Source: Phycisphaeraceae bacterium
GTDB lineage: Bacteria; Planctomycetota; Phycisphaerae; Phycisphaerales; SM1A02
Assembly: GCA_019636735.1 (NCBI GenBank)
Contig: JAHBWY010000005.1
Coordinates: forward strand, 28,117 to 92,116
DNA length: 64,000 nt
Direction: 5' to 3'
The position numbers and the translations under genes were made by a program. The notes under the pieces were generated by a model. That model saw only the letters and a list, made by a program, of their open reading frames with translations. It was not told the origin of the DNA and made no database searches. How positions within the stretch are numbered: position 1 is the stretch's first letter; each line of letters opens with the position of its first letter. Positions 6,138-61,286 of this stretch are shown here, in pieces.

Positions 6138-6701
6138 ATGGACGGTCCGATGCCGCGTGCCATTGGCCGCAACTGCTCTCGCGGGGCCTCGAGCGCCGCC
6201 GTCACCCGCTTACGCCGCGCGTCGGTGGTCGGCACGATTTCCCTCATCGCGATGTTCGGAGGCGCAATCGTCGGCACGGGATGCAGCCCCGTCAATGTCG
6301 ATCCATCGCGAGCGACGCGGCACTACCCGCGCGAACTCGTGCAGGGCGAGGTGGTTCAGGTTCAAGTCATCCCCGGCCCCACCTGGGTCGAGGTCGTCAA
6401 CGCGACGGCACGGAGCTACCGGGACTTCGACCTCTGGCTCAACCAGCGATACATGGTCCATATCGACGCGCTCGAGTCGGGCCAGACGCTCAAGATCCCC
6501 CTCTCCGACTTCTGGGATTGGCGCGGCGAGGGCCCCTTCGAGGGCGGCATCTTCCGCTACTACGCACCGACTCCGATCGCGCTGATGCAGGCACAGCTCT
6601 CGCCGACCGACCCGCTCATCGGCTTCGTCTGCGTGCTGCCCGAGGGCGCCCGTGACTTCTATGAGAATCCGCCGGCTCTGCCGGTCCAGCCGCGCCGCTG
6701 A
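6138..6701 (+). CDS. Putative lipoprotein (hypothetical)
   Basis: Only the 3' third of the 606-aa ORF 4881..6701 looks protein-like; the rest is antisense to dus. Basic n-region, hydrophobic core and lipobox-like IVGTGC. Start is approximate. Confidence 0.45.
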   Translation: MDGPMPRAIGRNCSRGASSAAVTRLRRASVVGTISLIAMFGGAIVGTGCSPVNVDPSRATRHYPRELVQGEVVQVQVIPGPTWVEVVNATARSYRDFDLWLNQRYMVHIDALESGQTLKIPLSDFWDWRGEGPFEGGIFRYYAPTPIALMQAQLSPTDPLIGFVCVLPEGARDFYENPPALPVQPRR

Positions 6702-6824
6702 ACCAGCCTCGCCGCGCTGACTCTGCTTCGCGCCGCTGAGCCAGCCTCGCCGCGCTGACTCTGCTTCGCGCCGCCGAGCCAGCCTCGCCGCGCTGACTCT
6801 GCTTCGCGCCGCTAGGCCAGCCTC
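6691..6824. repeat. 38-bp tandem repeat, about 3.5 copies (CCAGCCTCGCCGCGCTGACTCTGCTTCGCGCCGCTGAG)
   Basis: Full units at 6703-6740, 6741-6778 and 6779-6816, differing by 1-2 nt at the unit end. Partial units at 6691-6702 and 6817-6824. The first partial unit includes the stop codon of the upstream CDS. Confidence 0.9.
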
Positions 6825-29212: not shown

Positions 29213-30448
29213 GTGGGCCGATCAACGAGCGCATCCGAAGCAGCGCTCGCGAGTCTGGACGCGGCGCCTTGCTGCCTGCGCTGCGGGTATCCGATCGCGA
29301 CGACCTCCGAATCGCCGGCATGTTCCGAGTGCGGTGAGAGCACGGAGCGATCGCGTAAGGCATGGCGCGAAATGTGGATTCCGGGCGGCCGACGCGAGCG
29401 GCTGGCTCGCTCGCTCGTCCTGATCGCGACCTGCTCCGGAGCTCTCGCCGCCAGTTGGTCGCTGCAGACGCTGCTTCGACTCGAGGTGCTCGGGCCCAGT
29501 TCGGTGACGCCGGGGCCGTTCGGCTTGATCGCGCCGGTCGGTGCGGTGCTCAGGACGGGCCTCGTGATCACACTCATCCCACTCAACATCGTCGCGGCAT
29601 GCATCTGGTGGCGCATCGGGAGTCGGCCGCCGCTGCGGAGACGCGCCGCGAAGGGCTCTCTGCTCATCGTCGCCATGCTCGTCTGGGGATTCTGCACGCT
29701 GCTTCTGATCACACTGCTCGTCGGGGGGACCGTTGAGTCGCTTGATCGGCAGATGCAGACCATTCCCGAGTCGCTCGTGCTCGCGGCCACGCTGGCCGCA
29801 CAGTTCGCGATCTACCCGTGGCCGATGGCGCTCGCGGCGCGGGGGCTTCGAGCCGATCGCGACATCCCGTTCTGGCGCCGAGTCACCGCTCCGTGCGGAG
29901 TCGCAGGCCATGCGCTGCTCATCATCTGCGCCTGGTGCTTCGTGTCCGACGCAATCCTCCTGTTCGAGATGGAACGGGTCTTCGGCGCGATACTCATCCC
30001 GCCCTGGCTTCACTGGCTGATCCTGAAGACCTCGACGCTGCTCTGGAACGGCGGCGTGCCGCTCGCGCTCGCCTTCGTCGCGGGGGCGTCACTCGTGTCC
30101 CTCGCTCAAAGTGCGCAGGCGTTCGGCATCATGCCGTTGCTGAGGCGAACCTCGAGGACTCGCACCATCGTCGCGGCCATGCTCGTGACGATCTCCCTGC
30201 TCTCGATCGTGTGGTTCGGCTGCCTTGTAACCTGCATCCGGTTTGCCGGATTCACCGCGACGGGCGAACCGCAGGCGGATCGGGCTCGCGCCTTCATCGA
30301 GTCGCTGCTCGCCGACCCATTCTCACTGGCGCAGTTGGTCCTGCTTCCCCTGGTCATTCCCGCGGCGTGGATCGCGTGCTCGTGGTGGGCGCGGCGGCTT
30401 GCCTATTCGCCGATGTCCTCCGCCCAGAGGTCGGGCTTCTCGCGCTGA
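29213..30448 (+). CDS. Polytopic membrane protein with N-terminal zinc-ribbon (hypothetical)
   Basis: CCLRCGYPIATTSESPACSECGES (CxxC...CxxC) followed by about 9 hydrophobic helices. Its last 46 nt overlap the convergent deaminase gene. Its 3' ~150 nt recur at about 39385-39519 and 42797-42931. Confidence 0.6.
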   Translation: MGRSTSASEAALASLDAAPCCLRCGYPIATTSESPACSECGESTERSRKAWREMWIPGGRRERLARSLVLIATCSGALAASWSLQTLLRLEVLGPSSVTPGPFGLIAPVGAVLRTGLVITLIPLNIVAACIWWRIGSRPPLRRRAAKGSLLIVAMLVWGFCTLLLITLLVGGTVESLDRQMQTIPESLVLAATLAAQFAIYPWPMALAARGLRADRDIPFWRRVTAPCGVAGHALLIICAWCFVSDAILLFEMERVFGAILIPPWLHWLILKTSTLLWNGGVPLALAFVAGASLVSLAQSAQAFGIMPLLRRTSRTRTIVAAMLVTISLLSIVWFGCLVTCIRFAGFTATGEPQADRARAFIESLLADPFSLAQLVLLPLVIPAAWIACSWWARRLAYSPMSSAQRSGFSR

Positions 30449-30615
30449 AGGCGCTCCATCAGTGCCACGCAGCGCTCGTCGTTCAGCAGGCGCAGCTCGA
30501 CGCCCTCGCGCCTCATCCACTCCTCCGCGCCGAGATAGGTTCGATGCTCGCCGATCACCACGCGCGGGATCCTGAAGAGGATCGCGGTCCCCGAACACAT
30601 GGGACACGGTGAAAG
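30403..30615 (-). pseudogene. Cytosine deaminase copy 1, C-terminal fragment (split by IS66-family insertion)
   Basis: Encodes ...CPMCSGTAILFRIPRVVIGEHRTYLGAEEWMRREGVELRLLNDERCVALMERLQREKPDLWAEDIGE. Collinear with the intact copy 39474..39950 up to the IS junction at 30615/30616. Confidence 0.9.
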
Positions 30616-30632
30616 GTGTCCGTCCCGCGAAC

Positions 30633-32204
30633 CTTTCAATTACCCACATCTTTGGCCAGACAGTAACCGAGGTGGATGTCGGTCAATCTCGCCATGCCGC
30701 GCCATAGGACCATGTTTCCCGGCGGCGCATCGCGGGCCCGGTTCAGATAGCCACCGAGTCGAGCGAGCCTCGTCAGGAAGTTGCCTACCGTCTTCTTTCT
30801 TGAGCCGTCGTTGACCGGGACGAGGCGCTCGAGCAGGTTGATCTCTCTGGAGGTTCGCAGCACCAGCTTCACCGGGAGGTTCGGAGCGCGGTTCATCATC
30901 GTCAGCCACAGCACACGCCATGCCAGAATGCACATGATCGCACTGGCTGACCAGTCGCTCGGCAGTCCGCAGCCCGAGTCCTCGGCCCGACATCCTGACT
31001 TGAGCACCTTTGTGGAATGTCTCGATCTTCCAGCGTAAAAGCGCGTACCACCGAGCTTTTCGATCGCATCGGCCTTCTTCGATCGGATCGAAAGATTGGT
31101 CACGAGCTTCCAGTCGTTCGTCGCGCGGCCCTTAAGCACGCCCCGTTCCTTCGCGTGGATCACACTCAGCACCATGGTTCCAAAGGCTTCTCCTTCCTGA
31201 TGGGCGGGCACATTCTCGATCTGGTGGTACTTCAGCTCCAGCACTGCAAGCCTGACGGCGGCCCTTGTCGTCCTGACCTCGAGGCGATAAAGACAGCCCC
31301 TCACGCGCCGTTCGTCCATCGCGTTGGCCACGGCGCCTGCCGTCCTCCACGCGACGATCGACGCAAGTGCGGAACACAAACTTCTTCGTCCCCAGCGACG
31401 CGCATTCGCTGAACAACTCATATAGATGTCGCCTCCCGGTCGCCGATGTGGATGCAGCGAGCGGCGTCACCGATGTTCGCGGTCGATTGACGCACATTTT
31501 CGCCAGCGGATGCTCTCCTTCAGCTCAATCGGGATGCGAGTGGTGTTGACCGAATGCGTACCCGCGTCGAGACCTCTGCCCTTGGCCGCGTTGGTGCCTT
31601 GAAACCCCTTGCGCTGTCCAGAGCTTGATCGCCGAGACCGAGGGGCACGCCGTCAGTGGTGACGATGAGACTCGAGTGCATGAGGATGCCGCAGACAGTG
31701 TGCATTCGCTGGCGACCCTCTCTCATCCTTGTGACTCATGGCCACCCTGTTATGACACCAATCGCGAAAGTGCTCGCTCACGGTGAATGAGAACTCGGTC
31801 GTGTCGTGCAGTGCAAGGACCCGACCATCGACAAGCTGCCGACACGCCCGCGTGGCCTGCATGTGCCCGGCCAGGATCTCTGCCTCGCTCACACGCTTGT
31901 TGTCAAGAAAGCGATACGCGGCCTTGGTGCTGGCCCAATCACCGCACGCCAGCGGCAGTGACTGGCCGCTTCCTTGAGAGCTGCTCCATGAGTAGACCGA
32001 ACCGCCCAGCCAGTCGGGCATCGGCAAAGCGGCAGCCAGAAGCAAGCTCCTGATTGATCCACGGTCCCATGGCCGCGACTCCATCCGTTAAAAGCGATGC
32101 CATCCATGGCACGTTACTCCCCAGTGATCGGCATGACCAGTCCGTGCCGCAATAACCCAACCCTGTTCAGCGAACCAACAGACAAAGATGTGGGTAATTG
32201 AAAG
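30633..32204 (-). mobile_element. IS4-family (Tn5/IS50-like) element with decayed transposase, nested in the IS66 left end
   Basis: Perfect 22-bp terminal inverted repeats CTTTCAATTACCCACATCTTTG (30633-30654 and reverse complement at 32183-32204). 9-10 bp target duplication CCCGCGAAC(C) at 30624-30633 and 32205-32214. Confidence 0.85.
30636..32084 (-). pseudogene. IS4-family transposase, frameshifted in several places
   Basis: Tn5-like segments are spread over different frames: WASTKAAYRFLDNKRVS...LALHDTTEFSF (31653..32084), GILMHSSLIVTTDGVPLGLGDQ (31520..31726), ...LYELFSECASLG (31132..31497), KVLKSGCRAED / LRTAERLV / ILAWRVLWLTMMNR and LARLGGYLNR (30636..31421, 30640..30993). Confidence 0.8.
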
Positions 32205-32223
32205 CCCGCGAACCGCGATGGGG

Positions 32224-33822
32224 TCACTCTGAATCGGCCTGACGGCGTTGCCACTCATCGGGCAGCCAGTGATCAAGCTCTTCAGCCGGGGTCTTGGGCA
32301 GGTTCACAAGCAACTGCGTGAGGTAGACCTGTGGGTCGACGCCGTGGCGCCGACACGAGCTCGTGAGGCTCGAGAGGATCGCCGCCGTCTCGCCGCCGCA
32401 CGGACTGCCGACGATGAGCGAGTTCTTGCGGTTGAGCGCTTGACGCTTCATCTCGCGTTCGCTCGCGTTGTTGTCGATCGGGACTTCGGAGTCGTTCAGG
32501 AACACCGTCAGCTCGCTCCACTGGTTGAGCGCGTACTGCACCGCGCCCGCCATCGGGTGCTTGGGCAGCAGCACACCCTTCCAGTGCTCGAGCCGCCCCC
32601 GGATCATCTCCACGATCGGCCCGGACCTGTCCCGCCGGACTTCGGCGCGCGCGTCCGGGGTCGCCTCGCGGATCGATCGCTCGACCGCGAAGAGCGCATC
32701 CATGAGCGTCACCGCTTCGCGTGCGATTCCCGGCTCGCTCTTCTCGAGGTCGACGAACTTCCGCCGCGCATGCGCCCAGCATCCGGCGCGCGTGATCCCG
32801 TTGCCGGCCACGATCCCGTCGTAGCCGCCGTAAGCATCCGCCACGAGAGTCCCGCAGAAGTCCTTGAGGAACTTCGTCGGACCGTCTCTCGCCCGGCTCG
32901 GCGTGAAGTCGAACACCGTGTACGGATGCGAGTCGTCACCGAGGTAGACCCACATTCGCGCTTGACGCGTCTTCTCCTTCTCCAGGAGCGGCATCACCGT
33001 GTCATCGGTCCCGATCACGCGCGACGAGCGCACGCGATCGGCCATGCGCCGGTAGATCGGCATGGCGATCTCGGCGACATCGCGGCACCAGGTGGAGAGC
33101 GTCGATCGTGAGAGATCCAGGCCGTTGCGGCTGAAGATGTTTTCAAGTCTGTACAGCGGCAGGTAATCCGCGAACTTGCTCGTGACCACGAAGGCGAGCA
33201 GTCCGGGGCCGGCCATGCCCTTGTCGATCGCGGACGCGTCCTTCCGGGGCGCGGTCTCGACCTGGCCGCCGAGTCCCTCGCGATCGCAGTCGCGGCAGGC
33301 GTAGGTGTGGCGGCGATGGTGCCAGCGCTCGAAGTGGCCGGGGATGAACTCGACCTGCCAGCTTTCCTCGCATCCGATGCGGGTGCGCATCTGGCCGCAG
33401 CACTTGCAGGGCTTCTCGGCGTCGGGGAGATCATGCTCGACGGTGCGGACGGGCAGGTGCTCGAGGTCGGCGATGCGGCGGCGGCCGTGAGCCCCGGAAC
33501 GCTTCGCGTCGAGGCGACGCGCGTCGGCGCGGTCATCATCGGCAGCGCTCACCTCCGTCGGGAGCTCGAGCGGCCGCGCCTCGAGCTGCGTGGCGAACTC
33601 CAGCAGCAACTGGCCGAGCTCGACCACGGTCGACAGCCGATCCGCGCGCGGTCCGTAGAGACGCTTGCACAGCTTCAGAAGTTGCGCTTCGAGCCAGGCG
33701 ATCTTTGCGTCGCGATGCGCGAGCGACGCATCCTTCTCCGCGACATGAGACATCAGCATCGCGCAGAGCGCCTTCAGGGCATCGACATCTTCGGGAAGCT
33801 CGATCGCGGCCGCGTCGTCCAT
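32224..33822 (-). CDS. tnpC: IS66-family transposase TnpC
   Basis: 532 aa. N-terminal leucine-zipper region, zinc-finger CKCCGQMRTRIG...YACRDCD, DDE core with ...IGTDDTVMPLL... and ...AGCWAHARRKF... Confidence 0.9.
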   Translation of the reverse strand: MDDAAAIELPEDVDALKALCAMLMSHVAEKDASLAHRDAKIAWLEAQLLKLCKRLYGPRADRLSTVVELGQLLLEFATQLEARPLELPTEVSAADDDRADARRLDAKRSGAHGRRRIADLEHLPVRTVEHDLPDAEKPCKCCGQMRTRIGCEESWQVEFIPGHFERWHHRRHTYACRDCDREGLGGQVETAPRKDASAIDKGMAGPGLLAFVVTSKFADYLPLYRLENIFSRNGLDLSRSTLSTWCRDVAEIAMPIYRRMADRVRSSRVIGTDDTVMPLLEKEKTRQARMWVYLGDDSHPYTVFDFTPSRARDGPTKFLKDFCGTLVADAYGGYDGIVAGNGITRAGCWAHARRKFVDLEKSEPGIAREAVTLMDALFAVERSIREATPDARAEVRRDRSGPIVEMIRGRLEHWKGVLLPKHPMAGAVQYALNQWSELTVFLNDSEVPIDNNASEREMKRQALNRKNSLIVGSPCGGETAAILSSLTSSCRRHGVDPQVYLTQLLVNLPKTPAEELDHWLPDEWQRRQADSE

Positions 33823-33867
33823 GACGACATCCTCTCCGCGCCAGGCCCCGGCGCGGATGCAGGGAAA

Positions 33868-34237
33868 TCACGAACTTCGTGCGAATCGCTTCACGCGCTT
33901 CAGGCTCCGCAGGTCGACGCCGTCGAGCAGCATCGCCAGCTCGCTCGCGCGCAGCTCGATCGATGCACCTTCGTCGGCGCGAGGCAGACGGAAGGTGCCC
34001 GCCTCGAGCCGCTTGTACCAGAGCGCGTAGCCGTCGCGATCCCAGTAGAGAATCTTGAGGCGATCGCCTCCGCGCGAACGGAAGACGAAGAGGTGGCCGC
34101 TGCGAGGGTCCTGGCCGATCACTGACTGCGCCATCTCCGCGAGCCGATCGAAGCCGCGGCGCATGTCGGCGGGCGTCGTCGCCAGCCAGATGCGTGGCGC
34201 GCCTCGATCGAGCTGCGCGAGCGACGGTAGCGAGATC
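33868..34237 (-). pseudogene. tnpB: IS66 accessory protein TnpB, separated from its ATG by the IS256 insertion
   Basis: ...IWLATTPADMRRGFDRLAEMAQSVIGQDPRSGHLFVFRSRGGDRLKILYWDRDGYALWYKRLEAGTFRLP... The original ATG-ATC-TCG start now lies at 35702-35694, on the far side of the IS256 element. Confidence 0.8.
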
Positions 34238-35694
34238 GGTAAGGTTCGGAAGATTGCGCAGATTTGAAAAAGCAGCTCCCGCGCTGGAAGGTGTTGGTGT
34301 GTTGGAACAACCCCTTTCCAGAGGAGAGCTGCATGGACAGCGTAGCGAGCGGATCGACGGAAGTCGCGGAGTGCGCGACGGAGTCGTTGAAAGCGGCGGT
34401 GACGGTGGACGCGGAGAAGGTGCGAAGCCATCTGGACGAGATGGTGCGTTCGACGGTCGAGCAGACTCTGAACGCGATGCTGGAGGTGGAGGCGGACCAG
34501 GCGTGCGGGGCTGGTCGTTACGAGTGTTCGCCGGATCGTCTGACACTCGAGCGGGAGCTACGAGCGACGCTGGAGACGAAGGCGGGCTCGGTGAAGCCTG
34601 CTGTCCCGCGGCTTCGAGAAAGCTGCCGCTCGAGTCGATGATCATCGAGCGGTATCGTCGTCGGGAGATTTTTCGGTGGAGGAGCGCTGGCGGAGATAAA
34701 ATTCTGGCGGGCGTGAGCAGTGTCGGGTGGAGGACATCACGGAGCGCTGTGGGGATCGCGGGTGAGCCGCGAGCACGGTGAGCGGTCTGCCGCAGAAGGT
34801 ACGGCCAGATCGAGTCGTAGCGCAGCCGTCGGACCGAGGGGCGAACACGCGCACGTACCTGGACGGATCTGGGCTGAAGCGGAGCTGGGGCGGGGAGGTG
34901 AAGAGCGTGGCGGTGCTGGTGGCGATCGGGGTGAATCAGGAGGGCTTCCGCGAGATCCTTGGAGGGCGGAGGGGACGAAGGAGGACACGGAGAGCTGGCG
35001 CTCGTTCCTTCGGCATTTGAAGGAGCGCGGCCTGAGGGGTGTTCGGCTGGTGGTGAGCGACAAGTGCCTCGGGGGCTGGTCGAGGGCGTTGGGAGTTCTT
35101 CCCCGAGTAGCGTAATGGCAGCGATGCGTGGTGCACTTCTATCGCAATGATGACAGTGGTGCCAAAGGGTCGGGTGCAGGAGGCCGTGGCGATGCTGAAG
35201 ACGATCCACGCCCAGGAGGACGCGCGGAGCGCGGAGGAGAAGTCGAAGGATCGCGCAGAAGCTCGAGCTGCTTCGGCTGGACGAAGGCAGCGGAGCTCGT
35301 ACGTCGGCGTGCTGGAGACGCTGTCGTGGCCATGTCGTTCCCGGGAGCACTGGGCGCAGTCTTCGGACGAACAACCCGCTCGAGCGTCTGAATCGCGAGA
35401 TCCGCCGTCGGACTCGGGTGGTGGGATTTTCCCGGACGGGTCAGTCGGGCGCGATGCTGGTGGCGGCCCGGCTTCGTCACATGTCGGCGACGAAGTGGGG
35501 CTTGAGGCGGTACATGGACATGAGTCGATTGCGGGAGCTCGATGCGTCCCGCGCGGAGTCATCGGCCGCAGCGGCGTAGCTGCGGCCCCACGCTGGCAAG
35601 GCTGCGCCCCTCTTGATGGGGGCTCCGCCTTGCCAGCGATCACCTTCCCACGGAGGCTGCTTGATCAATTGTGCGCAACTTGACGGACGCTACC
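34238..35694 (+). mobile_element. IS256-family element with heavily frameshifted transposase, nested at the IS66 tnpA/tnpB junction
   Basis: Imperfect 30-bp terminal inverted repeats (GGTAAGGTTCGGAAGATTGCGCAGATTTGA versus GGTAGCGTCCGTCAAGTTGCGCACAATTGA, 21/30 match). 8-bp target duplication GCGAGATC at 34230-34237 and 35695-35702. IS256-type transposase pieces lie in at least 5 frame segments (EQTLNAMLEVEADQACGAGRYE; IIERYRRRE; LKRSWGGEVKSVAVLVAIGVNQEGFREILG; WRSFLRHLKERGLRGVRLVVSDKCLG; VHFYRN; AMLKTIHAQED). Confidence 0.85.
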
Positions 35695-35700
35695 GCGAGA

Positions 35701-36030
35701 TCATGACGCGGCCTCGGCGTCGAGACGCTCGAGCCGAACGACGAACCGTGCGACCCACGCCTCGTCGGCGCCGGATGCGATCTCGATCCGTCGTCCACCG
35801 GCAATCGTGATCACAACGCCGGGACCCGAGATCGAAGGTGGCGCCGCGAGCTCGACGAAGGACGGGTGATCATCGCGTCGATGCGACGCCGAGCCATCGC
35901 CTGCGAGCATGCGTCGCCATCGATGGAACGAGCTCGGCGACACCCCGTGCACCCTGCAGAACTCGACGATGCTCAGTCCGCTCCGACGCTGCTCGCGCAG
36001 CAGCCGGCGCCAATGCGCGTGATCATGCAT
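35701..36030 (-). CDS. tnpA: IS66 accessory protein TnpA
   Basis: 109 aa. HTH-like ...WRRLLREQRRSGLSIVEFCRVHGVSPSSFHRWRR..., typical of IS66 orf1. Confidence 0.85.
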   Translation of the reverse strand: MHDHAHWRRLLREQRRSGLSIVEFCRVHGVSPSSFHRWRRMLAGDGSASHRRDDHPSFVELAAPPSISGPGVVITIAGGRRIEIASGADEAWVARFVVRLERLDAEAAS

Positions 36031-36088
36031 CCACGAAGTGTCGACGCCGGCGGCCCGTCATGGAAGACGGGTTTCGCGGGACGGACGC

Positions 36089-36360
36089 GGTGAAAGCGTG
36101 CTCACCAGTGTGAGCGACCGCCAGTCGCGCCGGCGCCCGGCGCGGCGGATGCAGTCAACCTCCGCATGCGCCGTGGGGTCGCCGCTCTGCACGCGCTGGT
36201 TGTGGCCTGCCGCCACGACGCGCCCGCTCGGGCCGAGCAGCGCCGAGCCGATGGGAATGCCGCCCTCGCGCCAGCTCTTCTCCGCCTGCTCGATCGCCGC
36301 GAGCTCAGTGCGAGCCGTGGTGATCGGTGATCCCGACCTGACTTGTTGCTCGACTTTCAC
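36089..36360 (-). pseudogene. Cytosine deaminase copy 1, N-terminal fragment
   Basis: MKVEQQVRSGSPITTARTELAAIEQAEKSWREGGIPIGSALLGPSGRVVAAGHNQRVQSGDPTAHAEVDCIRRAGRRRDWRSLTLVSTLSP, interrupted exactly before the CPMC zinc ligands. Confidence 0.9.
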
Positions 36361-36440
36361 ATCGCATCGTGGCGCTCCGTCAGGATGGCCGTTTCAGCGT
36401 CCTGCGAGCATCACGGTTGAGCGAGTCCCTTACCGCGCGG

Positions 36441-37244
36441 TCACCCCCGCCTCCGGCCGCGAGTGCGCAGTGCGACCAGCGCCAGGAGCAAGGCGGCGCT
36501 GGGCGCGGGAACTGCCTGCGCCCGAAGAAGGAATACACCGTTACCTCCTAGTGCTGGGAATGAGTTGAGGCTCTGAATGACACCCGGAAACTGCGCATTC
36601 CAGGTCCCGCTTGGTGCGGTAGAAAACCACGAGCGATCAAGCGTCGGAACGCTGGTATCAATCGGCGCTGCAAATCCATTACTAACTGTTACGCTTACGC
36701 CCACAACAATATTGGCGAATGCGCTCACATCTGTCGGCGCCACGGTAACCGATTGAAACACATTCGACTTGATCGCGCCGGGATCGATCAGGGCACTCCA
36801 ACTCCCCAGATGGGTCATGCCGTTTGCGGGATCACCATCATTGTCGCCCCACAGATGGACATTGAAGGGAGCGCCGGCGCTGACACCCGCCGAGGAGGTA
36901 CTGCCCGCGAGGCCAAATGTGACCTGGATACTGGTGATGAGCGAGCCGCTCAGATTGACCGCGAAGACATTCATCCACGCAGCATCTGCAGTGTAACCAC
37001 TGAAGCCTCCTGCGGTGTTCGCCACGCCGTCATCCCACTGATAGGCGAAGTCGGCCGAAGCCGTCGCCGACAGAAGAGCAAGGCCGATCGATGCGATCGA
37101 CGCCGCTACGATGTGCCCGGTCGCCACATCAGACACGCACCGTTCTCGCGCGGCCTTTGCATTCATGGTGTCCGACTTAGGCTTGTGATCGCTGGCGGCT
37201 CGCCCCTGCCATGTTGTTGGCGCCTGGATCTGTGTCATCATCAC
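36441..37244 (-). CDS. PEP-CTERM-like anchored secreted protein, variant A
   Basis: C-terminus AVPAPSAALLLALVALRTRGRRRG (P-x-P motif + TM helix + Arg cluster). Signal-peptide-like IVAASIASIGLALLSATASA. Its start overlaps the stop of the upstream HAF gene (TGATG). Confidence 0.65.
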   Translation of the reverse strand: MMMTQIQAPTTWQGRAASDHKPKSDTMNAKAARERCVSDVATGHIVAASIASIGLALLSATASADFAYQWDDGVANTAGGFSGYTADAAWMNVFAVNLSGSLITSIQVTFGLAGSTSSAGVSAGAPFNVHLWGDNDGDPANGMTHLGSWSALIDPGAIKSNVFQSVTVAPTDVSAFANIVVGVSVTVSNGFAAPIDTSVPTLDRSWFSTAPSGTWNAQFPGVIQSLNSFPALGGNGVFLLRAQAVPAPSAALLLALVALRTRGRRRG

Positions 37245-39112
37245 TCACCTTCCTGTTGCTGGCTCATTACAAGCAGCGCGAGTGCCACCGCGGCCTCGAG
37301 CTGCGCCTTGCTCTTTCCCGCCGACCATTGGACGAACTGCTCGTCCGTTTCGAATCCAAGAGCGGCGAGGAACGAGTCCAGGCGATCCTGGGCGCTCCCG
37401 ATGCTCTCCACTCCTGTACGCAGGAATTCCGACGACTCACAGCAGATCGGATCGATTGTGAGCAGATCGTCACCGCTGCTCCAGTTCCCGATCAGGACCG
37501 CCAGGTCGTAGCCGTCGATCTTGACCTCTCCCTCAGGCGGTGTCGGGCCCAGGTCGAATGGACAGGCCTCGCTGCCTACTGAGCCCCAATGTCCAAGGAG
37601 CGCCGCCAGATCGGAACCGTCGATCCGATCATTCCCGTCGAAGTCCATCAGGTGGGCGAGCTTGTAGAGCGTGGTTCCTGCGATCACGAGCACCATGCCG
37701 CGATCGTTGACGGACGCCGCGAATGGGAGCTCGCCCTCGATCGTGCAGGCTCTGGTCACGGTGGCAAGATCAACGGCGCACCAGTCCGTTTCGAGGTCCT
37801 CCCCGCCCGGGTGCTCCCAGATGACGGCATGCGGACCGCCGCCAGCAGACTCCGACTCCTCTTCCTCCTCGACAAGTGGAACGGGTGAACGGAAGCCGGT
37901 GACTCGGATCAAGCCGTCGGCGCCGATCGAGATCGACTCCGCGCCGCTGGCATCGTTCGGCTCTTCGAGGAATGTTCCCAGATTGAGGTAAGGAAGGTCG
38001 TCGCTTCCAAGCGACCAGATCCACGCGTTGCGAACGCAGTCTTGGAAGGCAGGCGGAGCCTGCTGGCCAACGCCGACGGCCAGGCATCGCCCTTCTTCGC
38101 CAAGCGCAATTGCACGAGCGATGTTCTCGAAGTACAGCCAGTCGGACTCGCCGTCGGGCTGGTGCGGGTATGGCAGCAGACCGCCGCTGGGAGTCGAACC
38201 CATTGACCAGCCGTACGAATCCCGGGTTCGGCGGTCGGACGGGCAGTCGGCAAGGCTGAACTCCGCAGTGCACGGCCCAGGTTGCGGCGTCCTCTGCACG
38301 AACCCGACGGCCGCGGTGCCGGTCCCGGTGATCGCATACGGTCGGGCCATCGTGGGCAGCTCCCAATCTGATGGAAGCTCCTCTCCAAAATCACTGGACG
38401 ACCCAGTCCATTGAATGGCAAAGGGAAGGGATCCCCCTTCGCTATCCGAGCAGAACGAGAATGTCCCCACCACGATCGGCTCGAACCCGTCGGAGAGCGC
38501 CCACGCCAACCCGGTCCGAGGATCCGGCTCGCTTGCCGGCGATGATTGAGGATGCGGCGGCAAGTAGGGCGAAAGGTCGAAGACATCGTGCCCTGTTGAA
38601 CTGCTGCTCTCGCGCCACCAGATGCACGGCAGCGCGTTGCTCAATGCGGCGGTGGCGCCGGGATCGGGCAGCACGCCACCGACGACACTCCCGACATCGT
38701 TGATGCCCAGGGCCACTGACGCATCGGCGCCGCTTGGATGAAGCGAATGCAGCCCGGCGGAGAGCCCGTAGAGATCACGCGGAAGCCAGAGAAATGCCTC
38801 GGTCGTCTGACTCGAGCCTTCACCAACGACCCTCGATCCGGCGACGGCGCCATCGTCATTCGAGACAACGCGCGTGGTGATCGAATGGCGCCCCGAAATG
38901 AGCACGCTCGTCCCACTGCGAATCGAAGTCACAATGGGCACTGCCCGGTAGCGCTCGCAAGTCTGCGGCATTCCTCGCGCCCCAGCGACCGCCAGCAGGT
39001 GAATCGCTGCGAGCGCGGTCAGAGTCGGCGCGAGCCGACGGACGACGGACGACGGACGACGGACGACGGACGACGGACGACGGACGACGGACGACGGACT
39101 CAAGTTGTTCAT
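37241..39112 (-). CDS. HAF-repeat extracellular protein with dockerin-like EF-hand pair, copy A (in frame)
   Basis: GGAGGAG Shine-Dalgarno at 39116-39122, ATG at 39112, (PSSVVRR)x3, signal core LAPTLTALAAIHLLAVAGARG. HAF-like repeats (TEAFLWLP...ALGINDVGSVVGG). C-terminal DFDGNDRIDGSDLAALLGHWG and KIDGYDLAVLIGNWS. Confidence 0.75.
   Translation of the reverse strand: MNNLSPSSVVRRPSSVVRRPSSVVRRLAPTLTALAAIHLLAVAGARGMPQTCERYRAVPIVTSIRSGTSVLISGRHSITTRVVSNDDGAVAGSRVVGEGSSQTTEAFLWLPRDLYGLSAGLHSLHPSGADASVALGINDVGSVVGGVLPDPGATAALSNALPCIWWRESSSSTGHDVFDLSPYLPPHPQSSPASEPDPRTGLAWALSDGFEPIVVGTFSFCSDSEGGSLPFAIQWTGSSSDFGEELPSDWELPTMARPYAITGTGTAAVGFVQRTPQPGPCTAEFSLADCPSDRRTRDSYGWSMGSTPSGGLLPYPHQPDGESDWLYFENIARAIALGEEGRCLAVGVGQQAPPAFQDCVRNAWIWSLGSDDLPYLNLGTFLEEPNDASGAESISIGADGLIRVTGFRSPVPLVEEEEESESAGGGPHAVIWEHPGGEDLETDWCAVDLATVTRACTIEGELPFAASVNDRGMVLVIAGTTLYKLAHLMDFDGNDRIDGSDLAALLGHWGSVGSEACPFDLGPTPPEGEVKIDGYDLAVLIGNWSSGDDLLTIDPICCESSEFLRTGVESIGSAQDRLDSFLAALGFETDEQFVQWSAGKSKAQLEAAVALALLVMSQQQEGE
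39036..39098 (-). repeat. Heptanucleotide microsatellite (TCCGTCG)x9 within the 5' coding region
   Basis: Nine perfect tandem units counted base by base (plus-strand CGACGGA, 39036-39098). Confidence 0.95.
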
Positions 39113-39473
39113 CGACTCCTCCGCAGGTGAACCCGAGGTGGACCACTCGGAGAGAACCGGGTGGCCTGGATTTGCGGAAACCGGACTTGTTGGACTTTAC
39201 CGCCGTTCCGGAGCAGGTCAAGGCGCTGCGAGCAGATCTCGATGGAGCAGAATGGCATTTCCTGAGTGTTGAGGGGGCGGACGGTGGTCAAATGGGCCGT
39301 TGCAACGAGATCGCCGAGTTCCTTCGTTCCCAACACCCCAGCGTTCACCACGGCGTCGGCTCCCTGCTCACTCCCCTGCTCTCGGATCCCCCATCACTGG
39401 CGCAGTTGGTCCTGCTTCCCCTGGTCATTCCCGCGGCGTGGATCGCGTGCTCGTGGTGGGCGCGGCGGCTTGC

Positions 39474-39950
39474 CTACTCGCCGATGTCCTCGGCCCAGAG
39501 GTCGGGCTTCTCGCGCTGAAGGCGCTCCATCAGTGCCACACAGCGCTCGTCGTTCAACAGGCGCAGCTCAATGCCCTCGCGCCTCATCCACTCCTCCGCG
39601 CCGAGATAGGTGCGGTGCTCGCCGATCACCACGCGCGGGATCCTGAAGAGGATCGCGGTCCCCGAACACATGGGACACGGCGAGAGCGTGCTCACCAGCG
39701 TGAGCGACCGCCAGTCGCGCCGGCGCCCGGCGCGGCGGATGCAGTCAACCTCCGCATGCGCCGTGGGGTCGCCGCTCTGCACGCGCTGGTTGTGGCCTGC
39801 CGCCACGACGCGCCCGCTCGGGTCAAGCAGCGCCGAGCCGATGGGAATGCCGCCCTCGCGCCAGCTCTTCTCCGCCTGCTCGATCGCCGCGAGCCCAGTG
39901 CGAGCCGTGGTGATCGGTGATCCCGACCTGACTTGTTGCTCGACTTTCAC
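39474..39950 (-). CDS. Cytosine deaminase, yeast Fcy1-type (CMP/dCMP zinc-deaminase fold), copy 2, intact
   Basis: HAEVDCI...TLSPCPMCSG zinc motifs. The C-terminus NDERCVALMERLQREKPDLWAEDIGE closely parallels the Fcy1 C-terminus (...DDERCKKIMKQFIDERPQDWFEDIGE, quoted from memory). Confidence 0.8.
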   Translation of the reverse strand: MKVEQQVRSGSPITTARTGLAAIEQAEKSWREGGIPIGSALLDPSGRVVAAGHNQRVQSGDPTAHAEVDCIRRAGRRRDWRSLTLVSTLSPCPMCSGTAILFRIPRVVIGEHRTYLGAEEWMRREGIELRLLNDERCVALMERLQREKPDLWAEDIGE

Positions 39951-40030
39951 ATCGCATCGTGGCGCTCCGTCAGGATGGCCGTTTCAGCGTCCTGCGAGCA
40001 TCACGGTTGAGCGAAGCCCTTACCGGGCGG

Positions 40031-40696
40031 TCACCCCCGCCTTCGGCCGCGAGTGCGCAGTGCGACCAGCGCCAGGAGCAAGGCGGCGCTGGGCGCGGGA
40101 ACCGCGAAGCTCATGTACTCGATCATGCCGGCTACGGCGACTGTAAAGCCTTGAGGCGGCGGGGGCGGAATCAGTCGCACCCGGTCAAACGGCGTGACCG
40201 ACTGGAAGCCTACGAACACCGCCACTGCGTCATTGGGCGGCATTCCAAAGGGGATGTTGCTTGCAAAGATATCCCCGACGAGCGTATCGCCGAGGTAGAA
40301 CTCAACATGAACACCCATGTAGTTCAACGGCCGGGTGCCCCAGAACTTCAAGGGGGCTGCGAACTCCATGTTGATTTCGTAGATGCCTGGCGGCACGGGG
40401 TTCCATATGTCCTTACCCCCAATTGCCGGCTTCAGAGCCTGCGGATAGCCTGGATTCCACGCGTAGGCCGACCAGTCGTCCCCGTCGGTGAAACTCACGC
40501 CCTGCGGGGCCCATTGATTTGTTATAAGTGTGTTGGCCGGAACATCACCGAAATTGACCTGCGTGATGTTCGAGGCACCGCCAGCCGCCGACACCCACGC
40601 TGCTTTGTCAATGGTGTAGGACACGCCCGCCACGGCGTGCCCGGTCGTGACAGCGAACACGCACAGTACCGCCGCTCTCTGATCCTGTTTCATCAC
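40031..40696 (-). CDS. PEP-CTERM-like anchored secreted protein, variant B
   Basis: Same C-terminal AVPAPSAALLLALVALRTRGRRRG and same TGATG start overlap as variant A, but an unrelated 190-aa passenger (signal peptide AAVLCVFAVTTGHAVAG). Confidence 0.65.
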   Translation of the reverse strand: MMKQDQRAAVLCVFAVTTGHAVAGVSYTIDKAAWVSAAGGASNITQVNFGDVPANTLITNQWAPQGVSFTDGDDWSAYAWNPGYPQALKPAIGGKDIWNPVPPGIYEINMEFAAPLKFWGTRPLNYMGVHVEFYLGDTLVGDIFASNIPFGMPPNDAVAVFVGFQSVTPFDRVRLIPPPPPQGFTVAVAGMIEYMSFAVPAPSAALLLALVALRTRGRRRG

Positions 40697-42524
40697 TCAC
40701 CTTCCTGTTGCTGGCTCATTACAAGCAGCGCGAGTGCCACCGCGGCCTCGAGCTGCGCCTTGCTTTTTCCCGCCGACCATTGGACGAACTGCTCGTCCGT
40801 TTCGAATCCAAGAGCGGCGAGGAACGAGTCCAGGCGATCCTGGGCGCTCCCGATGCTCTCCACTCCTGTACGCAGGAATTCCGACGACTCACAGCAGATC
40901 GGATCGATTGTGAGCAGATCGTCACCGCTGCTCCAGTTCCCGATCAGGACCGCCAGGTCGTAGCCGTCGATCTTGACCTCTCCCTCGGGCGGTGTCGGGC
41001 CCAGGTCGAATGGACAGGCCTCGCTGCCTTCTGCACCCCACACTCCTAGCAACATTGCCAGATCTGACCCGTCAACCCGATCATTCCCGTCGAAGTCCAT
41101 CAGGTGGGCGAGCTTGTAGAGCGTGGTTCCTGCGATCACGAGCACCATGCCGCGATCGTTGACGGACGCCGCGAATGGGAGCTCGCCCTCGATCGTGCAG
41201 GCTCTGGTCACGGTGGCAAGATCAACGGCGCACCAGTCCGTTTCGAGGTCCTCCCCGCCCGGGTGCTCCCAGATGACGGCATGCGGACCGCCGCCAGCAG
41301 ACTCCGACTCCTCTTCCTCCTCGACAAGTGGAACGGGTGAACGGAAGCCGGCGACTCGGACGCTGTCGGGCGCCGATCGAGATCACCGATTCTTCCGCCG
41401 GCATCGCCCGATTTTTCGAGGAATGTACCCAGATTGAGGTAAGGCCGTCGCTTCCAAGCGACCAGATCCACGCGTTGCGAACGCAGTCTTGGAAGGCAGG
41501 CGGAGCCTGCTGGCCAACGCCGACGGCCAGGCATCGCCCTTCTTCGCCAAGCGCAATTGCACGAGCGATGTTCTCGAAGTACAGCCAGTCGGACTCGCCG
41601 TCGGGCTGGTGCGGGTATGGCAGCAGACCGCCGCTGGGAGTCGAACCCATTGACCAGCCGTACGAATCCCGGGTTCGGAGGAGTGTGGGGCAGTTGGGTT
41701 GTCCTAGCTCGGTCGAACACGGCCCAGGTTGCGGCGTCCTCTGCACGAACCCGACGGCCGCGGTGCCGGTCCCGGTGATCGCATACGGTCGGGCCATCGT
41801 GGGCAGCTCCCAATCTGATGGAAGCTCCTCTCCAAAATCACTGGACGACCCAGTCCATTGAATGGCAAAGGGAAGGGATCCCCCTTCGCTATCCGAGCAG
41901 AACGAGAATGTCCCCACCACGATCGGCTCGAACCCGTCGGAGAGCGCCCACGCCAACCCGGTCCGAGGATCCGGCTCGCTTGCCGGCGATGATTGAGGAT
42001 GCGGCGGCAAGTAGGGCGAAAGGTCGAAGAACTCGTGCCCTGTTGAACTGCTGCTCTCGCGCCACCAGATGCACGGCAGCGCGTTGCTCAATGCGGCGGT
42101 GGCGCCGGGATCGGGCAGCACGCCACCGACGACACTCCCGACATCGTTGATGCCCAGGGCCACTGACGCATCGGCGCCGCTTGGATGAAGCGAATGCAGC
42201 CCGGCGGAGAGCCCGTAGAGATCACGCGGAAGCCAGAGAAATGCCTCGGTCGTCTGACTCGAGCCTTCACCAACGACCCTCGATCCGGCGACGGCGCCAT
42301 CGTCATTCGAGACAACGCGCGTGGTGATCGAATGGCGCCCCGAAATGAGCACGCTCGTCCCACTGCGAATCGAAGTCACAATGGGCACTGCCCGGTAGCG
42401 CTCGCAAGTCTGCGGCATTCCTCGCGCCCCAGCGACCGCCAGCAGGTGAATCGCTGCGAGCGCGGTCAGAGTCGGCGCGAGCCGACGGACGACGGACGAC
42501 GGACGACGGAATCAAGTTGTTCAT
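40693..42524 (-). pseudogene. HAF-repeat/dockerin-like protein, copy B (out of frame at the leader, frameshifted internally)
   Basis: ATG 42524 opens only a 73-aa ORF. The body is split into 41222..42418 and 40693..41211, with at least 3 frame changes between about 41340 and 41460 relative to copy A. Elsewhere it is near-identical to copy A. Confidence 0.8.
42483..42510 (-). repeat. Heptanucleotide microsatellite (TCCGTCG)x4
   Basis: Four perfect units. This is 35 nt shorter than in copy A, which shifts the frame. Confidence 0.95.
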
Positions 42525-42885
42525 CGACTCCTCCGCAGGTGAACCCGAGGTGGACCACTCGGAGAGAACCGGGTGGCCTGGATTTGCGGAAACCGGACTT
42601 GTTGGACTTTACCGCCGTTCCGGAGCAGGTCAAGGCGCTGCGAGCAGATCTCGATGGAGCAGAATGGCATTTCCTGAGTGTTGAGGGGGCGGACGGTGGT
42701 CAAATGGGCCGTTGCAACGAGATCGCCGAGTTCCTTCGTTCCCAACACCCCAGCGTTCACCACGGCGTCGGCTCCCTGCTCACTCCCCTGCTCTCGGATC
42801 CCCCATCACTGGCGCAGTTGGTCCTGCTTCCCCTGGTCATTCCCGCGGCGTGGATCGCGTGCTCGTGGTGGACGCGGCGGCTTGC

Positions 42886-43355
42886 CTACTCGCCGATGTC
42901 CTCGGCCCAGAGGTCGGGCTTCTCGCGCTGAAGGCGCTCCATCAGTGCCACACAGCGCTCGTCGTTCAACAGGCGCAGCTCAATGCCCTCGCGCCTCATC
43001 CACTCCTCCGCGCCGAGATAGGTGCGGTGCTCGCCGATCACCACGCGCGGGATCCTGAAGAGGATCGCGGTCCCCGAACACATGGGACACGGCGAGAGCG
43101 TGCTCACCAGCGTGAGCGACCGCCAGTCGCGCCGGCGCCCGGCGCGGCGGATGCAGTCAACCTCCGCATGCGCCGTGGGGTCGCCGCTCTGCACGCGCTG
43201 GTTGTGGCCTGCCGCCACGACGCGCCCGCTCGGGCCGGGCAAGCCGCCGAGCCGATGGGAATGCCGCCTTCGAGCCAGCTCGTCTCCGCCTGCTCGATCG
43301 CCGCGTCGAGACCGGCGCGGATGGCGGCATCGGGAGGCCAGGCGGAGACGCTCAC
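42886..43355 (-). pseudogene. Cytosine deaminase copy 3 (frameshifted; divergent N-terminus)
   Basis: From PSGRVVAAGHNQ to the stop it is identical in protein sequence to copy 2 (ORF 42886..43242). The N-terminal part ...DAAIRAGLDAAIEQAETSWLEGGIPIGSA lies in another frame (ORF 43104..43472; candidate GTG at 43355). The junction near 43235-43245 has 10 nt where copy 2 has 8. Confidence 0.75.
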
Positions 43356-43389: not shown

Positions 43390-44454
43390 TCAAGATCCGC
43401 GGCGCGACGATCCGCTCGTGGCCGACCCTGCGGCAGCCCCCGCACCCGGGGCTTGATCAGCACTGGCGGCAATGGTGCGGCTCAGTCCATCCTCGAACGA
43501 GACGATCGGGCTGTAGTTGATGAGCGCCTTGGCCGCGCGGATGTCCGCCTCGCTGTCGCGCACATCGCCGCGCCGCATGGGATGAAAGACCCGTTCGGCC
43601 TTCGTGCCGACGCCACGCTCGATCGCCTCCAGCAGCTCAAGCAGCGAGAAGCGCCCGCCACAGCCGATGTTGACCACCTGGCCTTCAAGCGCCGATGCAG
43701 TCGTCGCCGCGCAGAGGTTCGCGTGCACCGCGTTCGCCACGAAGGTGAAGTCTCGCGTCTGCCTTCCATCGCCATAGATCTCGACCGGGGCACCTTCGCG
43801 CACGGCCTTGATCCAGCGCGGCACGACCGCCGCGTATGCCGAGTCATGCCGCTGCCGGGGACCGAAGATGTTGAAGTAGCGCAGCGAGACGGTCTCCAAG
43901 CCGTAGCAGATGGCCCATGCTCGGAGTGAGTGCTCGCCCGCCAGCTTCGTCATTGCGTAGGGTGACCGCGGATCGGGCCGCATGGTTTCGACCTTCGGCA
44001 GCGTTGGCGTATCGCCATAGGCGCTCGAACTCGCGGAGTAGACGACGCGCTTCACTCCATGCCGCCGCGCCGCCTGAAGCACGGCCACCGTGCCGTCGGC
44101 GTTGGCCGCCTGGAAGCGATCGGGGTTCTCCACGCTCGCCGGCACGCTGCCCAGCGCCGCAAGGTGAAAGACAACCTTCGCCCCGCCCATCGCTTCGTCG
44201 AGCGCCGAGAGGTCAAGAATGCTCGAGGCGAAGACGCGCACCCGGCTGGCCACCCGGGAGAGATTGACCTCGCGTCCGTTGGAGAAATCGTCGATCACGC
44301 TCACATCGGCGCCAAGCTCGACGAGCGCGTCGACCACATGCGATCCGATGAAGCCCGCGCCACCGGTCACGCAGACGCGCATGCCCGAGAGCGCCTTGCC
44401 GGAGTCATGAAGCAGGGAGGACCGGGTCGTGCTCGGCGGCGTGGTCATGGTCAT
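43390..44454 (-). CDS. NAD-dependent sugar-nucleotide epimerase/dehydratase (SDR family)
   Basis: MRVCVTGGAGFIGSHVVDAL..., catalytic YSASSSAYGD...K context; WbpP/TviC-like length. The start may instead be the Met at 44382, which would remove the overlap with the desaturase. Confidence 0.85.
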   Translation of the reverse strand: MTMTTPPSTTRSSLLHDSGKALSGMRVCVTGGAGFIGSHVVDALVELGADVSVIDDFSNGREVNLSRVASRVRVFASSILDLSALDEAMGGAKVVFHLAALGSVPASVENPDRFQAANADGTVAVLQAARRHGVKRVVYSASSSAYGDTPTLPKVETMRPDPRSPYAMTKLAGEHSLRAWAICYGLETVSLRYFNIFGPRQRHDSAYAAVVPRWIKAVREGAPVEIYGDGRQTRDFTFVANAVHANLCAATTASALEGQVVNIGCGGRFSLLELLEAIERGVGTKAERVFHPMRRGDVRDSEADIRAAKALINYSPIVSFEDGLSRTIAASADQAPGAGAAAGSATSGSSRRGS

Positions 44455-45412
44455 CGGAGCGTACCGGCCCCGACACCGACCGTCGATCGATCGGCGACCC
44501 TCGACGCCTGGCGCTGACTCGATCGTGCGAGGGAAGCCGAATGTCCTTGGCCAACCCCACGCTGCTCAACAGGCGAATGAGCCACCAGCTCGCATCCAGC
44601 TCCCACCATCGAAGTCCGTGACGCGCGCTTGATGGAAAGGCGTGATGATTGTTGTGCCACCCCTCGCCCATGGCGAGCACGCCCACGATGAAGTTGTTCC
44701 GGCTCTCATCGCCGCTCTCATACGGCCGTGATCCCCAGAGGTGACAGATCGAGTTGACGCTCCAGGTGACATGATGCACCGCCATGACACGAATGAGGCC
44801 ACCCCAGAGGAATCCCGTGATGGCCCCGTACCAGGAGAGTGTGATCACTCCGCCAATGACCGCCGGCGCAATCAAGCCGATCAACACCCACAATCGAAAC
44901 TGCCGATCAACGGCCACCAGGACCGGATCGCGCTCAAGATCCCGGGAGTAGCGCCCCAGGCCGCCCTGGTGCGGCGCGAAGAGCCAGCCGAGATGCGCGT
45001 GAAACGCCCCGCGCAGCGTGGCCCACCAGCCCTCGCCCCACGACCCATGGTCGCCCATGTGCGGAGAGTGCGGATCGCCCTCGGTGTCCGAGTGCACATG
45101 ATGGCGCCGATGCTCGGCGCACCAGGTGATGACCGGCCCCTGCACGGCCATGGAACCCGCCGCCGCCAGCATGTAGCGCACCGGCGCCGGCGTGGTGAAT
45201 GCCCGATGCGTGCAGAGTCGATGAAAGCCGACGGTGATGCCCAACGCCGTCATCACCGAGAAGCCCAGGAAGAGCGAAAGCGAGACCGCGTCGATGGCGG
45301 TCCCCCAGAGCAGAGCGATCGCCACGGCCAGCCCGCCCGGCGGCAGGAGCACGGCAAAGAGGTTGATCAGTCGTCGCTTGGAATCTGCCGGAGTCAGTTC
45401 TCGGCGGCTCAA
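44405..45412 (-). CDS. Acyl-CoA/acyl-lipid delta-9 desaturase family protein, paralog 1
   Basis: Histidine boxes [19 protein letters not shown] and [18 protein letters not shown]. Apparent TTG start overlaps the atpA stop (TTGA). Confidence 0.85.
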
Positions 45413-61058: not shown

Positions 61059-61286
61059 CGATCACGGAGCTTTGTGCGGGCTTCATCGAGATTCAGTCGC
61101 GAAACGGGCGTGCGTTGGCGATCGGGCGCTCAGGGAGCCGCGCCGAACACGCGCGCACTCCGCGGCCTCCGAGTACATTCCCACCTCTCCGTTGCCCCCC
61201 ACATCACAGGCCACGCGCGGCTGAGCTCCTCATCGAGCCTTGACGGACCCGCCCGACTGACCGATCCAGCGCCACCTCTCTCACTC

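Follow-up and report, generated by a model that had tools for sequence, protein, structure and literature searches.

A tandem array in which copies of a cytosine deaminase gene alternate with copies of a two-gene operon was found in a 64,000-nucleotide stretch (the window; 65% G+C) of contig JAHBWY010000005.1, which belongs to the metagenome-assembled genome (MAG) of a Phycisphaeraceae bacterium (GCA_019636735.1). The copy number and unit order described below are those of the MAG assembly. The best explanation of the array, and probably the correct one, is that the operon was captured inside the deaminase gene and that tandem segmental amplification and decay followed, on the chromosome and with no dedicated genetic system. 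The locus would be a natural example of how an amplification is founded, in which an operon is captured inside a housekeeping gene, 0.5-kb repeats of the target are made, and these repeats drive expansion; a relative that possesses the empty site fixes the direction of events. Gene capture, tandem amplification and decay make up a textbook mechanism, and the rearrangement is an ordinary one that involves no new principle. A better lead is offered by the operon itself, in which a (TCCGTCG)n tract in the leader-coding region of Haf occurs together with mosaic patches of divergence and the exact exchange of a Pep gene body.

Structure of the array

The array begins within the 3' end of a membrane protein gene (M) and ends within a convergent deaminase gene (D3). 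It contains three copies (c1, c2 and c3) of a repeat, R, of about 497 nt, which consists of the 3' end of M (M3') and of the deaminase gene D from about codon 17 to the stop codon, and two copies of a segment, F, which consists of a flank (the N' flank), the genes Pep and Haf, and the region upstream of Haf (ig). The whole can be written M5'-R-F-R-F-R-(resident D start)-epimerase, with the following components.

29213-30448, plus strand: M, a multi-pass membrane protein with a Zn ribbon (CxxC...CxxC); no other copy is full-length, and M3' is the final 126 nt of M (30323-30448)
30323-30615, no strand assigned: left part of R copy 1 (c1), comprising M3' and, from D1, the last 71 codons (30403-30615, minus strand), and stopping at an insertion sequence (IS)
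36097-36360, minus strand: N-terminal part of D1 (88 codons); the R core ends at about 36300
36441-37244, minus strand: PepA, 267 amino acids (aa), an ORFan body on a 22-residue PepB-type tail, VPAPSAALLLALVALRTRGRRRG
37241-39112, minus strand: HafA, an intact 623-aa protein predicted to be secreted, with a HAF-like region at about residues 85-150 and a dockerin-like region at about 480-620
39113-39393, minus strand: ig, with ribosome binding site (RBS) GGAGGAG and promoter-like TTGACC-16-TAAAGT (39221-39194), ending at the ig|M3' junction
39394-39890, no strand assigned: R copy 2 (c2), a hybrid of a c3-like left part and a c1-type N' at the right
39474-39950, minus strand: D2, the sole intact deaminase copy, 158 aa, with a chimeric N-terminus
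40031-40696, minus strand: PepB, a PEP-CTERM-like protein of 221 aa that is conserved as the partner of Haf
40693-42524, minus strand: HafB, a pseudogene with an out-of-frame leader and uncompensated insertions and deletions (indels) in patch 2 (see below)
42806-43305, no strand assigned: R copy 3 (c3), comprising M3' and the resident D3 to about codon 17
42886-43355, minus strand: D3, the resident cytosine deaminase gene, with the ancestral N-terminus and a GTG start at 43355
43390-44454, minus strand: NAD-dependent sugar epimerase, the conserved right-hand neighbour of D

The plus-strand order M3'-D1-PepA-HafA-M3'-D2-PepB-HafB-M3'-D3, which had been proposed in an earlier reading of the sequence (the original prediction), was recovered by self-BLAST and by a repeat finder. 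Unit 1 (30323-30615 plus 36097-39393) is 3590 nt long after removal of the IS and one copy of its target site duplication (TSD), unit 2 (39394-42805) is 3412 nt long, and a partial unit 3 extends from 42806 to about 43305; the repeat periods that had been predicted from copy 1 to copy 2 and from copy 2 to copy 3 were reproduced. Self-comparison of the window matched 37238-39891 to 40690-43305 (95.9% identity across 2660 nt), 36083-36512 to 39673-40102 (97.4% identity, 430 nt), 30323-30618 to both 39394-39690 and 42806-43102 (96% identity), and 36083-36301 to 43085-43305 (95.5% identity), all of these matches (E = 0 to 1e-97) being well above chance expectation. M3' is indeed present in three copies, the second and third starting at 39394 and 42806, but its true size is 126 nt, not about 150 nt as first estimated. 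Direct repeats do bracket the operon copies; in place of the predicted 0.6-0.7 kb, a core of about 497 nt is common to all three and about 709 nt to copies 1 and 2. The overlap of 46 nt between M and the convergent D was confirmed (30403-30448). Every copy of R starts with the same 84 nt, and c3 is near-identical to c2 as far as about 43240, with greater divergence from 43240 to 43305.

The description of the array as two cassettes between repeated flanks held for the flanks, but not for the cassettes: the whole 3.4-kb unit is duplicated and the cassettes are themselves copies, the Pep bodies alone being unrelated. Outside three patches and a repeat tract, Haf and the approximately 280 nt upstream of it are about 99.7% identical between the units. 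The new junction ig|M3' recurs at 39393|39394 and 42805|42806, and is absent from the corresponding locus of a relative (L084, below); head-to-tail multi-gene units at high identity with such a recurrent join are the marks of a tandem segmental duplication. The array appears to represent one cassette type, copied as a full 3.4-kb unit with the body of one open reading frame (ORF) exchanged, and not two independent cassettes. The only intact repeated genes are D2, HafA, PepA and PepB; three are dead, namely D1 (split by an IS66-family element), D3 (+2 frameshift) and HafB (frameshifted).

The ancestral locus and the deaminase copies

The original prediction also held that relatives would possess M> <D <epimerase without a cassette, and this arrangement was found in contig CAZSVT010000240.1 of GCA_964610365.1 (L084), which was reached through a homologue of M. 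The order of genes in L084 is rSAM (80% aa identity), a small gene, M> (34-35%), <D (90% aa identity to D2) and <epimerase (75%), with the same 46-nt overlap of M and D; neither Pep nor Haf is present in this contig. The N-terminus of the L084 deaminase (MSGAAWPSDAAIRAGLDAAIEQAE) matches that of D3 (VSVSAWPPDAAIRAGLDAAIEQAE) and not that of D1 and D2 (MKVEQQVRSGSPITTARTELAAIEQAE), which bears out the suggestion that D3 is the ancestral resident gene. Beyond the right end of the repeat, the DNA next to c3 can be aligned with L084, and that next to c1 and c2 cannot. The start of the L084 deaminase matches D3 and the site is free of the cassette; it follows that the resident copy is D3 and that the ancestral locus was arranged M> <D <epimerase. 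The original prediction thereby withstood the refutation test that had been set with it.

The right boundary of the array lies inside D3, where it had been placed previously, at about 43303-43305, and D3 shares no related N-terminus with D1 and D2. In D1, the first 17 or so codons (N', MKVEQQVRSGSPITTART) were supplied by the cassette flank and not by the resident gene, and the source of the new N-terminus of D1 and D2 is the flank downstream of Pep. The near identity of the deaminase copies was likewise upheld: D1 with the IS excised differs from D2 by 3 residues, and D3 does not differ from D2 anywhere between residue 44 and the C-terminus. D1 is split by the IS66-family element just ahead of its PCxxC motif, and D3 carries an insertion of 2 nt near 43243, derived relative to the outgroup L084, that inactivates the gene.

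D2 matches PF00383 at 74.9 bits (cut-off 25), and its best matches in PDB are all FCY1 cytosine deaminase (1ysb, E = 5e-31, residues 22-158, the C-terminal EDIGE included); the core alone aligned with TadA (1e-16). D2 is predicted to be a cytosine deaminase of the yeast FCY1 type. Like FCY1 (1ysb, 1uaq), it consists of 158 aa and has the zinc motifs HAE and PCxxC, and the alignment of the two is full length; the differences are that the first 17 or so residues of D1 and D2 have been replaced by cassette-flank sequence and that two of the three copies are inactivated.

Proposed origin and recombination of the array

In the first step proposed here, F, as a promoter-bearing operon of two genes, Haf and PepB, would have entered D at about codon 17 of an ancestral locus with the order rSAM> M> <D <epimerase, and R (about 0.5 kb) would have been duplicated in the same event to give M5'-R-F-R-(ancestral D start)-epimerase. 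The G+C content at third codon positions (GC3) of F, which is below that of its neighbours (0.65 in PepA and 0.74 in PepB and Haf, vs 0.79-0.88), was counted in favour of its entry as an operon. A single founding event would have given R-F-R, either a microhomology-mediated duplication with templated insertion or a Campbell-type (single-crossover) integration of a circle that carried R. Both junctions are adjoined by imperfect microhomology, and no significant homology of ig to M was found past the identical 42 codons. The insert resembles the product of a Campbell-type integration in being flanked by direct repeats and in the nature of the right copy, a mosaic of incoming and resident sequence that keeps the resident N-terminus, but no vector, circle or donor was observed; in such an integration, ig|M3' would be the point of circularisation. 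The anatomy fits a one-step microhomology-mediated duplication with insertion just as well.

The second step would be unequal homologous crossing-over between the right R and the left R of R-F-R, producing R-F-R-F-R. With L084 as the outgroup, 11 sites set c1 apart from the other two copies, and derived states are found on both sides. At every one of these c1-specific sites c2 agrees with c3, yet it runs rightward into the c1-type N'. Because c2 is the hybrid expected from unequal crossing-over, recombination between the repeats, for which the original prediction had regarded them as a substrate, probably occurred. The direct repeats can still allow the array to expand or collapse by RecA-type recombination.

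Tandem duplication and amplification through unequal RecA-dependent crossing-over between direct repeats is established in bacteria, and is reportedly the subject of work by Roth and Andersson. The array resembles such amplifications in its head-to-tail units, its recurrent ig|M3' join, its hybrid middle repeat, its capacity for expansion and collapse, and the decay of extra copies. It differs in that the founding repeats are not IS elements or rRNA genes but a 0.5-kb duplication of the target gene that would have resulted from insertion of a foreign operon, and in that one unit has an exchanged ORF body.

The third step, decay and diversification, can be read from the sequence itself: the IS66-family element landed in the first D copy and was later entered by two nested IS elements, the Pep body of unit 1 was exchanged for an ORFan, three patches of Haf came to differ between the units, HafB and D3 were frameshifted, and the Haf leader tract has 9 units in unit 1 and 4 units in unit 2.

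Several observations weigh against this history. The R copies differ by about 3% (R1 vs R2 and R3) and the Haf backbones by about 0.3%; therefore, the units were duplicated much later than the founding repeats diverged, which means either that step 1 and the duplication were far apart or that step 1 imported diverged DNA. The source is a MAG, and the two-unit copy number and the unit order rest on its assembly. No donor of PepA was found in the window or among the annotated proteins of the MAG, and the three Haf patches are not accounted for by simple decay. Further difficulties are posed by an independent metagenome contig of 4x coverage (L001; ENA ERZ794913, NODE_2843), which at 2249-2700 joins an IS66-bearing c1-type repeat to ig, not to the 5' part of M, and which pairs an A-type Haf with PepB. 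Either the array varies between strains or one of the two assemblies is chimeric, and a path switch at the identical first 84 nt of R could have occurred in either assembly.

A second assembly and the IS66 composite

Both ig|M3' and D|N' recur in L001, where IS66 also sits at the site that it occupies in the window; the independent assembly supports these junctions and this site, though not the copy number. The components of the composite at that site in the window are as follows.

30616-36088, minus strand: IS66-family element of 5473 bp, encoding TnpA (35701-36030), TnpB (33868-34431) and TnpC (32224-33822)
30634-32204: nested broken IS4/Tn5-like element, 18 nt inside the IS66 end
34238-35694: nested broken IS256-like element, within IS66

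The IS66 element has imperfect terminal inverted repeats (GTGTCCGTCCCGCGAA and GCGTCCGTCCCGCGAA), an 8-bp TSD (GGTGAAAG) at 30608-30615 and 36089-36096, and matches to PF03050, PF05717, PF13005, PF13817 and PF01527. L001 shares the IS66 insertion but has neither nested element, and its clean IS66 copy at the identical site was used to set the limits of both. At the point, 18 nt from the junction with D, at which the IS4-like element is found in the window, IS66 runs on uninterrupted in L001; because IS66 is intact there, L001 probably represents a different or earlier strain.

The pairing of an A-type Haf with PepB and 4 tract units in L001 is a third combination of the features that distinguish the two units, and these differences (the ORF swap, variable loops and repeat number) look allelic. 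They would fit an assembly artefact, in which a one-unit R-F-R locus was present in two strain haplotypes, one carrying PepA with A-type Haf and 9 tract units, the other PepB with B-type Haf and 4, that were concatenated through their shared repeat. The MAG source and the 84-nt stretch at the start of R that is identical in all copies, and so permits path switching, speak for this explanation, which is nevertheless judged unlikely. However, the 320-kb contig passes unbroken through the 5.5-kb nested IS composite, which suggests that repeat-spanning reads or read pairs were available; c2 is a hybrid precisely of the kind that a real unequal crossover predicts; and assemblers generally collapse or pop variants and seldom concatenate them. 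Even with an artefact of this kind, the insertion that gave R-F-R would be real, and so would the status of D3 as resident, the insertion of IS66 and the variation of the repeat tract.

Haf genes and their divergent patches

HafA matches no Pfam family, and its own match to HAF_rpt (TIGR02913; E = 0.21, 11.6 bits) is below the cut-off of 22.65. About a hundred proteins are matched by HafA in residues 85-150, with E values down to 1e-23; among those sampled, seven of eight score above the HAF_rpt cut-off (98-223 bits), and the other, a 99-aa fragment, scores 22.2 bits. HafA is similar to the HAF-repeat extracellular proteins in that this region appears to be homologous to bona fide members, and different in that HafA itself scores under the cut-off. 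Three or four full-length relatives of HafA were found among 5.8 billion proteins, and scans of JGI metagenomes with the Haf alignment and with a DNA pattern of the Haf 5' end and repeat gave no matches. The dockerin-like module of HafA recurs in two other proteins of the window. Two secreted-type proteins (52455-53933 and 59244-61058) contain Dockerin_1 domains, one of them together with FG-GAP repeats, and the C-terminal regions of both resemble HafA residues 382-545 or thereabouts (31-38% identity).

HafA and HafB differ at 5 scattered positions, by 35 nt in the length of a repeat tract, and in three dense patches.

HafA 37578-37624 and HafB 41030-41076, minus strand: patch 1, 17 of 47 nt differing
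HafA 37900-37998 and HafB 41352-41445, minus strand: patch 2, with uncompensated indels in HafB (41347-41450)
HafA 38232-38270 and HafB 41679-41717, minus strand: patch 3

Divergence within the patches is 30-50%, inside a backbone that differs at just 5 positions. Patches 1 and 3 fall in regions that are variable among outgroup homologues too. In patch 3, HafB (CSTELGQPNCP) is nearer to the outgroups (CSIDIGLPNCP) and the version in HafA is derived, yet it is confirmed by L001; in patch 2, HafB has lost the conserved motif ASGAESISI..DGLIRV. No template for the patches, direct or inverted, was found within the window, and their most likely source is conversion from an unseen paralogue or a foreign allele. 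A diversity-generating retroelement was considered and rejected on the grounds that the patch substitutions involve all four bases, that no reverse transcriptase was found in the region, and that the window holds no template.

A heptanucleotide tract in the Haf leader

The difference in tract length concerns a tandem heptanucleotide repeat at the 5' end of Haf.

39036-39099, minus strand: perfect (TCCGTCG)x9 tract in the HafA leader, in frame (ON)

The tract begins 14 nt past the ATG of HafA and encodes (PSSVVRR)n in the leader peptide, before a hydrophobic stretch. The tract of HafB (42483-42510) has 4 units and is out of frame (OFF), and that of L001 (2855-2882), which is on an A-type 5' end, also has 4 units; these counts of 9, 4 and 4 are three observations, one of them from a contig of 4x coverage. 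The full-length ORF exists with 0, 3, 6, 9 or 12 units only, other counts halting translation after 14-94 codons. This is the sole such tract in the 64 kb, the remaining tandem-repeat arrays that were found having periods that are multiples of 3 or being imperfect. Judging from its sequence, the tract has the architecture of repeat-driven phase variation, and a 7-base repeat so placed may be able to turn the first gene of the operon on and off.

Repeat-driven phase variation is classically exemplified by the opa genes of Neisseria, whose leader-coding regions contain CTCTT repeats. Haf resembles them in having a perfect repeat, with a unit that is not a multiple of 3, in the leader-coding region of a gene for a surface or secreted protein, in the differing unit counts of paralogues, and in the ON and OFF states of the reading frame; it differs in that the unit is a heptanucleotide, that the organism is an uncultured, probably free-living member of the Phycisphaeraceae, and that ON and OFF are deduced from the frame only. 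Phase variation has been reviewed (PMC11868660), and simple sequence repeats have been surveyed (PMC5084427).

It is conceivable, although improbable, that Haf-Pep is a functional contingency locus, that is, a phase- and antigenically variable surface module in which strand slippage in the tract flips Haf ON and OFF; the tandem second copy would then be a reservoir for segmental gene conversion, and together with the 0.5-kb repeats it would permit the three variable Haf patches and the Pep partner to be shuffled by recombination. The perfect 7-nt tract in the leader-coding region, alone of its kind in the window, with 9, 4 and 4 units across the copies and the independent assembly and a full ORF at multiples of 3 only, is what such a locus would display, as are products predicted to be secreted or surface proteins and the coincidence of patches 1 and 3 with outgroup-variable regions. 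However, only two or three alleles are known, the repeat number of L001 coming from a contig of 4x coverage. HafB, with uncompensated indels and the loss of conserved residues in patch 2, looks like a product of decay, not a reservoir of variation; it is equipped with a promoter-like site, an RBS and a start codon of its own, hence it is no silent cassette; and a donor of the A-type patches or of PepA was not found in the window or among the MAG's annotated proteins. If tract length does vary within populations, repeat-based phase variation of surface proteins would be extended to uncultured Phycisphaerae, and there would be a first handle on the function of the very small HafA family. A true contingency locus would imply that surface variation of the kind seen in host-adapted pathogens exists in a free-living planctomycete, perhaps driven by phages or grazers.

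Pep genes and the conserved Haf-PepB operon

The bodies of PepA and PepB (36513-37237 vs 40103-40689) are unrelated, and the exchange is exact: identity between the units stops 7 nt into the ORF (GTGATGA, codon 3) and returns at the first codon of the VPAPS tail. No homologues of PepA were found besides itself, and single-sequence AlphaFold models of PepA and PepB were unusable (predicted local distance difference test scores of 35-37).

The tail shared by PepA and PepB resembles by eye, in a P-x-P variant, the signal of the PEP-CTERM proteins that are sorted by exosortase (Haft et al. 2006, PMC1569441). The likeness consists of the P-x-P motif, a hydrophobic helix and a cluster of arginine residues at the extreme C-terminus. 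The Pep tails differ from that signal in having VPAP instead of PEP; the PEP-CTERM models (TIGR02595/NCBIfam, Pfam) did not match them even at E <= 10, and no exosortase gene was found among the scanned ORFs, which were part of those in the window.

In two distant contigs (L002 and L003), a homologue of Haf (53% identity) precedes one of PepB (51-58% identity) whose tail is VPTPG or VPAPG; in neither contig is the pair flanked by D or M. Because Haf and then PepB homologues occur together in both contigs, Haf-PepB is a conserved operon. In L003 (Logan SRR28170335, 81-2623), the Haf and PepB homologues are each split into two ORFs, which may be pseudogenes or the result of sequencing errors.

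The presence of two similar cassettes in the same orientation between repeated sequences might also suggest a mobile gene cassette system, either one like an integron or a small integrative element with the deaminase gene as its target, but this is very improbable. The would-be attachment repeats are 0.5 kb of the target gene itself, the Haf-Pep pairs of L002 and L003 lack flanking D and M, and no integrase, recombinase or attC-like inverted repeat was found in or beside the units among the ORFs of 29-44 kb. Terminal inverted repeats that might bound the unit were also sought, and none was significant, inverted matches of 14-22 nt at 77-93% identity being at the level of chance. Nor were a tRNA, an Rfam family, or similarity to plasmids or phages found in the region.

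M and the genomic context

The M protein is 100% identical to KF724_08230 of the MAG, and PepA and HafA are identical to KF724_08285 and KF724_08290, respectively. M matched no Pfam family. It has 34-35% identity to its positional homologue in L084 (1489-2592), while the neighbours of M have 75-90%. M is a Zn-ribbon membrane protein that evolves fast, and the 46 nt over which it converges with D have been conserved. Searches for exact copies of M, D2, the epimerase, P0005 and HafA recovered no recorded contig. A genome scan with the M protein gave no matches, and a scan with rSAM recovered Phycisphaerales relatives (68-74% identity) in which M, D and the epimerase gene are not beside rSAM, so that these genomes are uninformative about the site.

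The genes that surround the array are of housekeeping types (FtsK, RNase R-like, the ATP synthase operon). Two fatty-acid desaturase paralogues (44405-45412, minus strand, and 61074-62201, plus strand) share an inverted DNA similarity of 79% over 170 nt (44610-44778 vs 61906-62073). At 6691-6824, a 38-nt tandem repeat of 3.5 copies (94% identity) with a 19-nt sub-period is situated at the end of an unannotated ORF of 606 aa (4881-6701).

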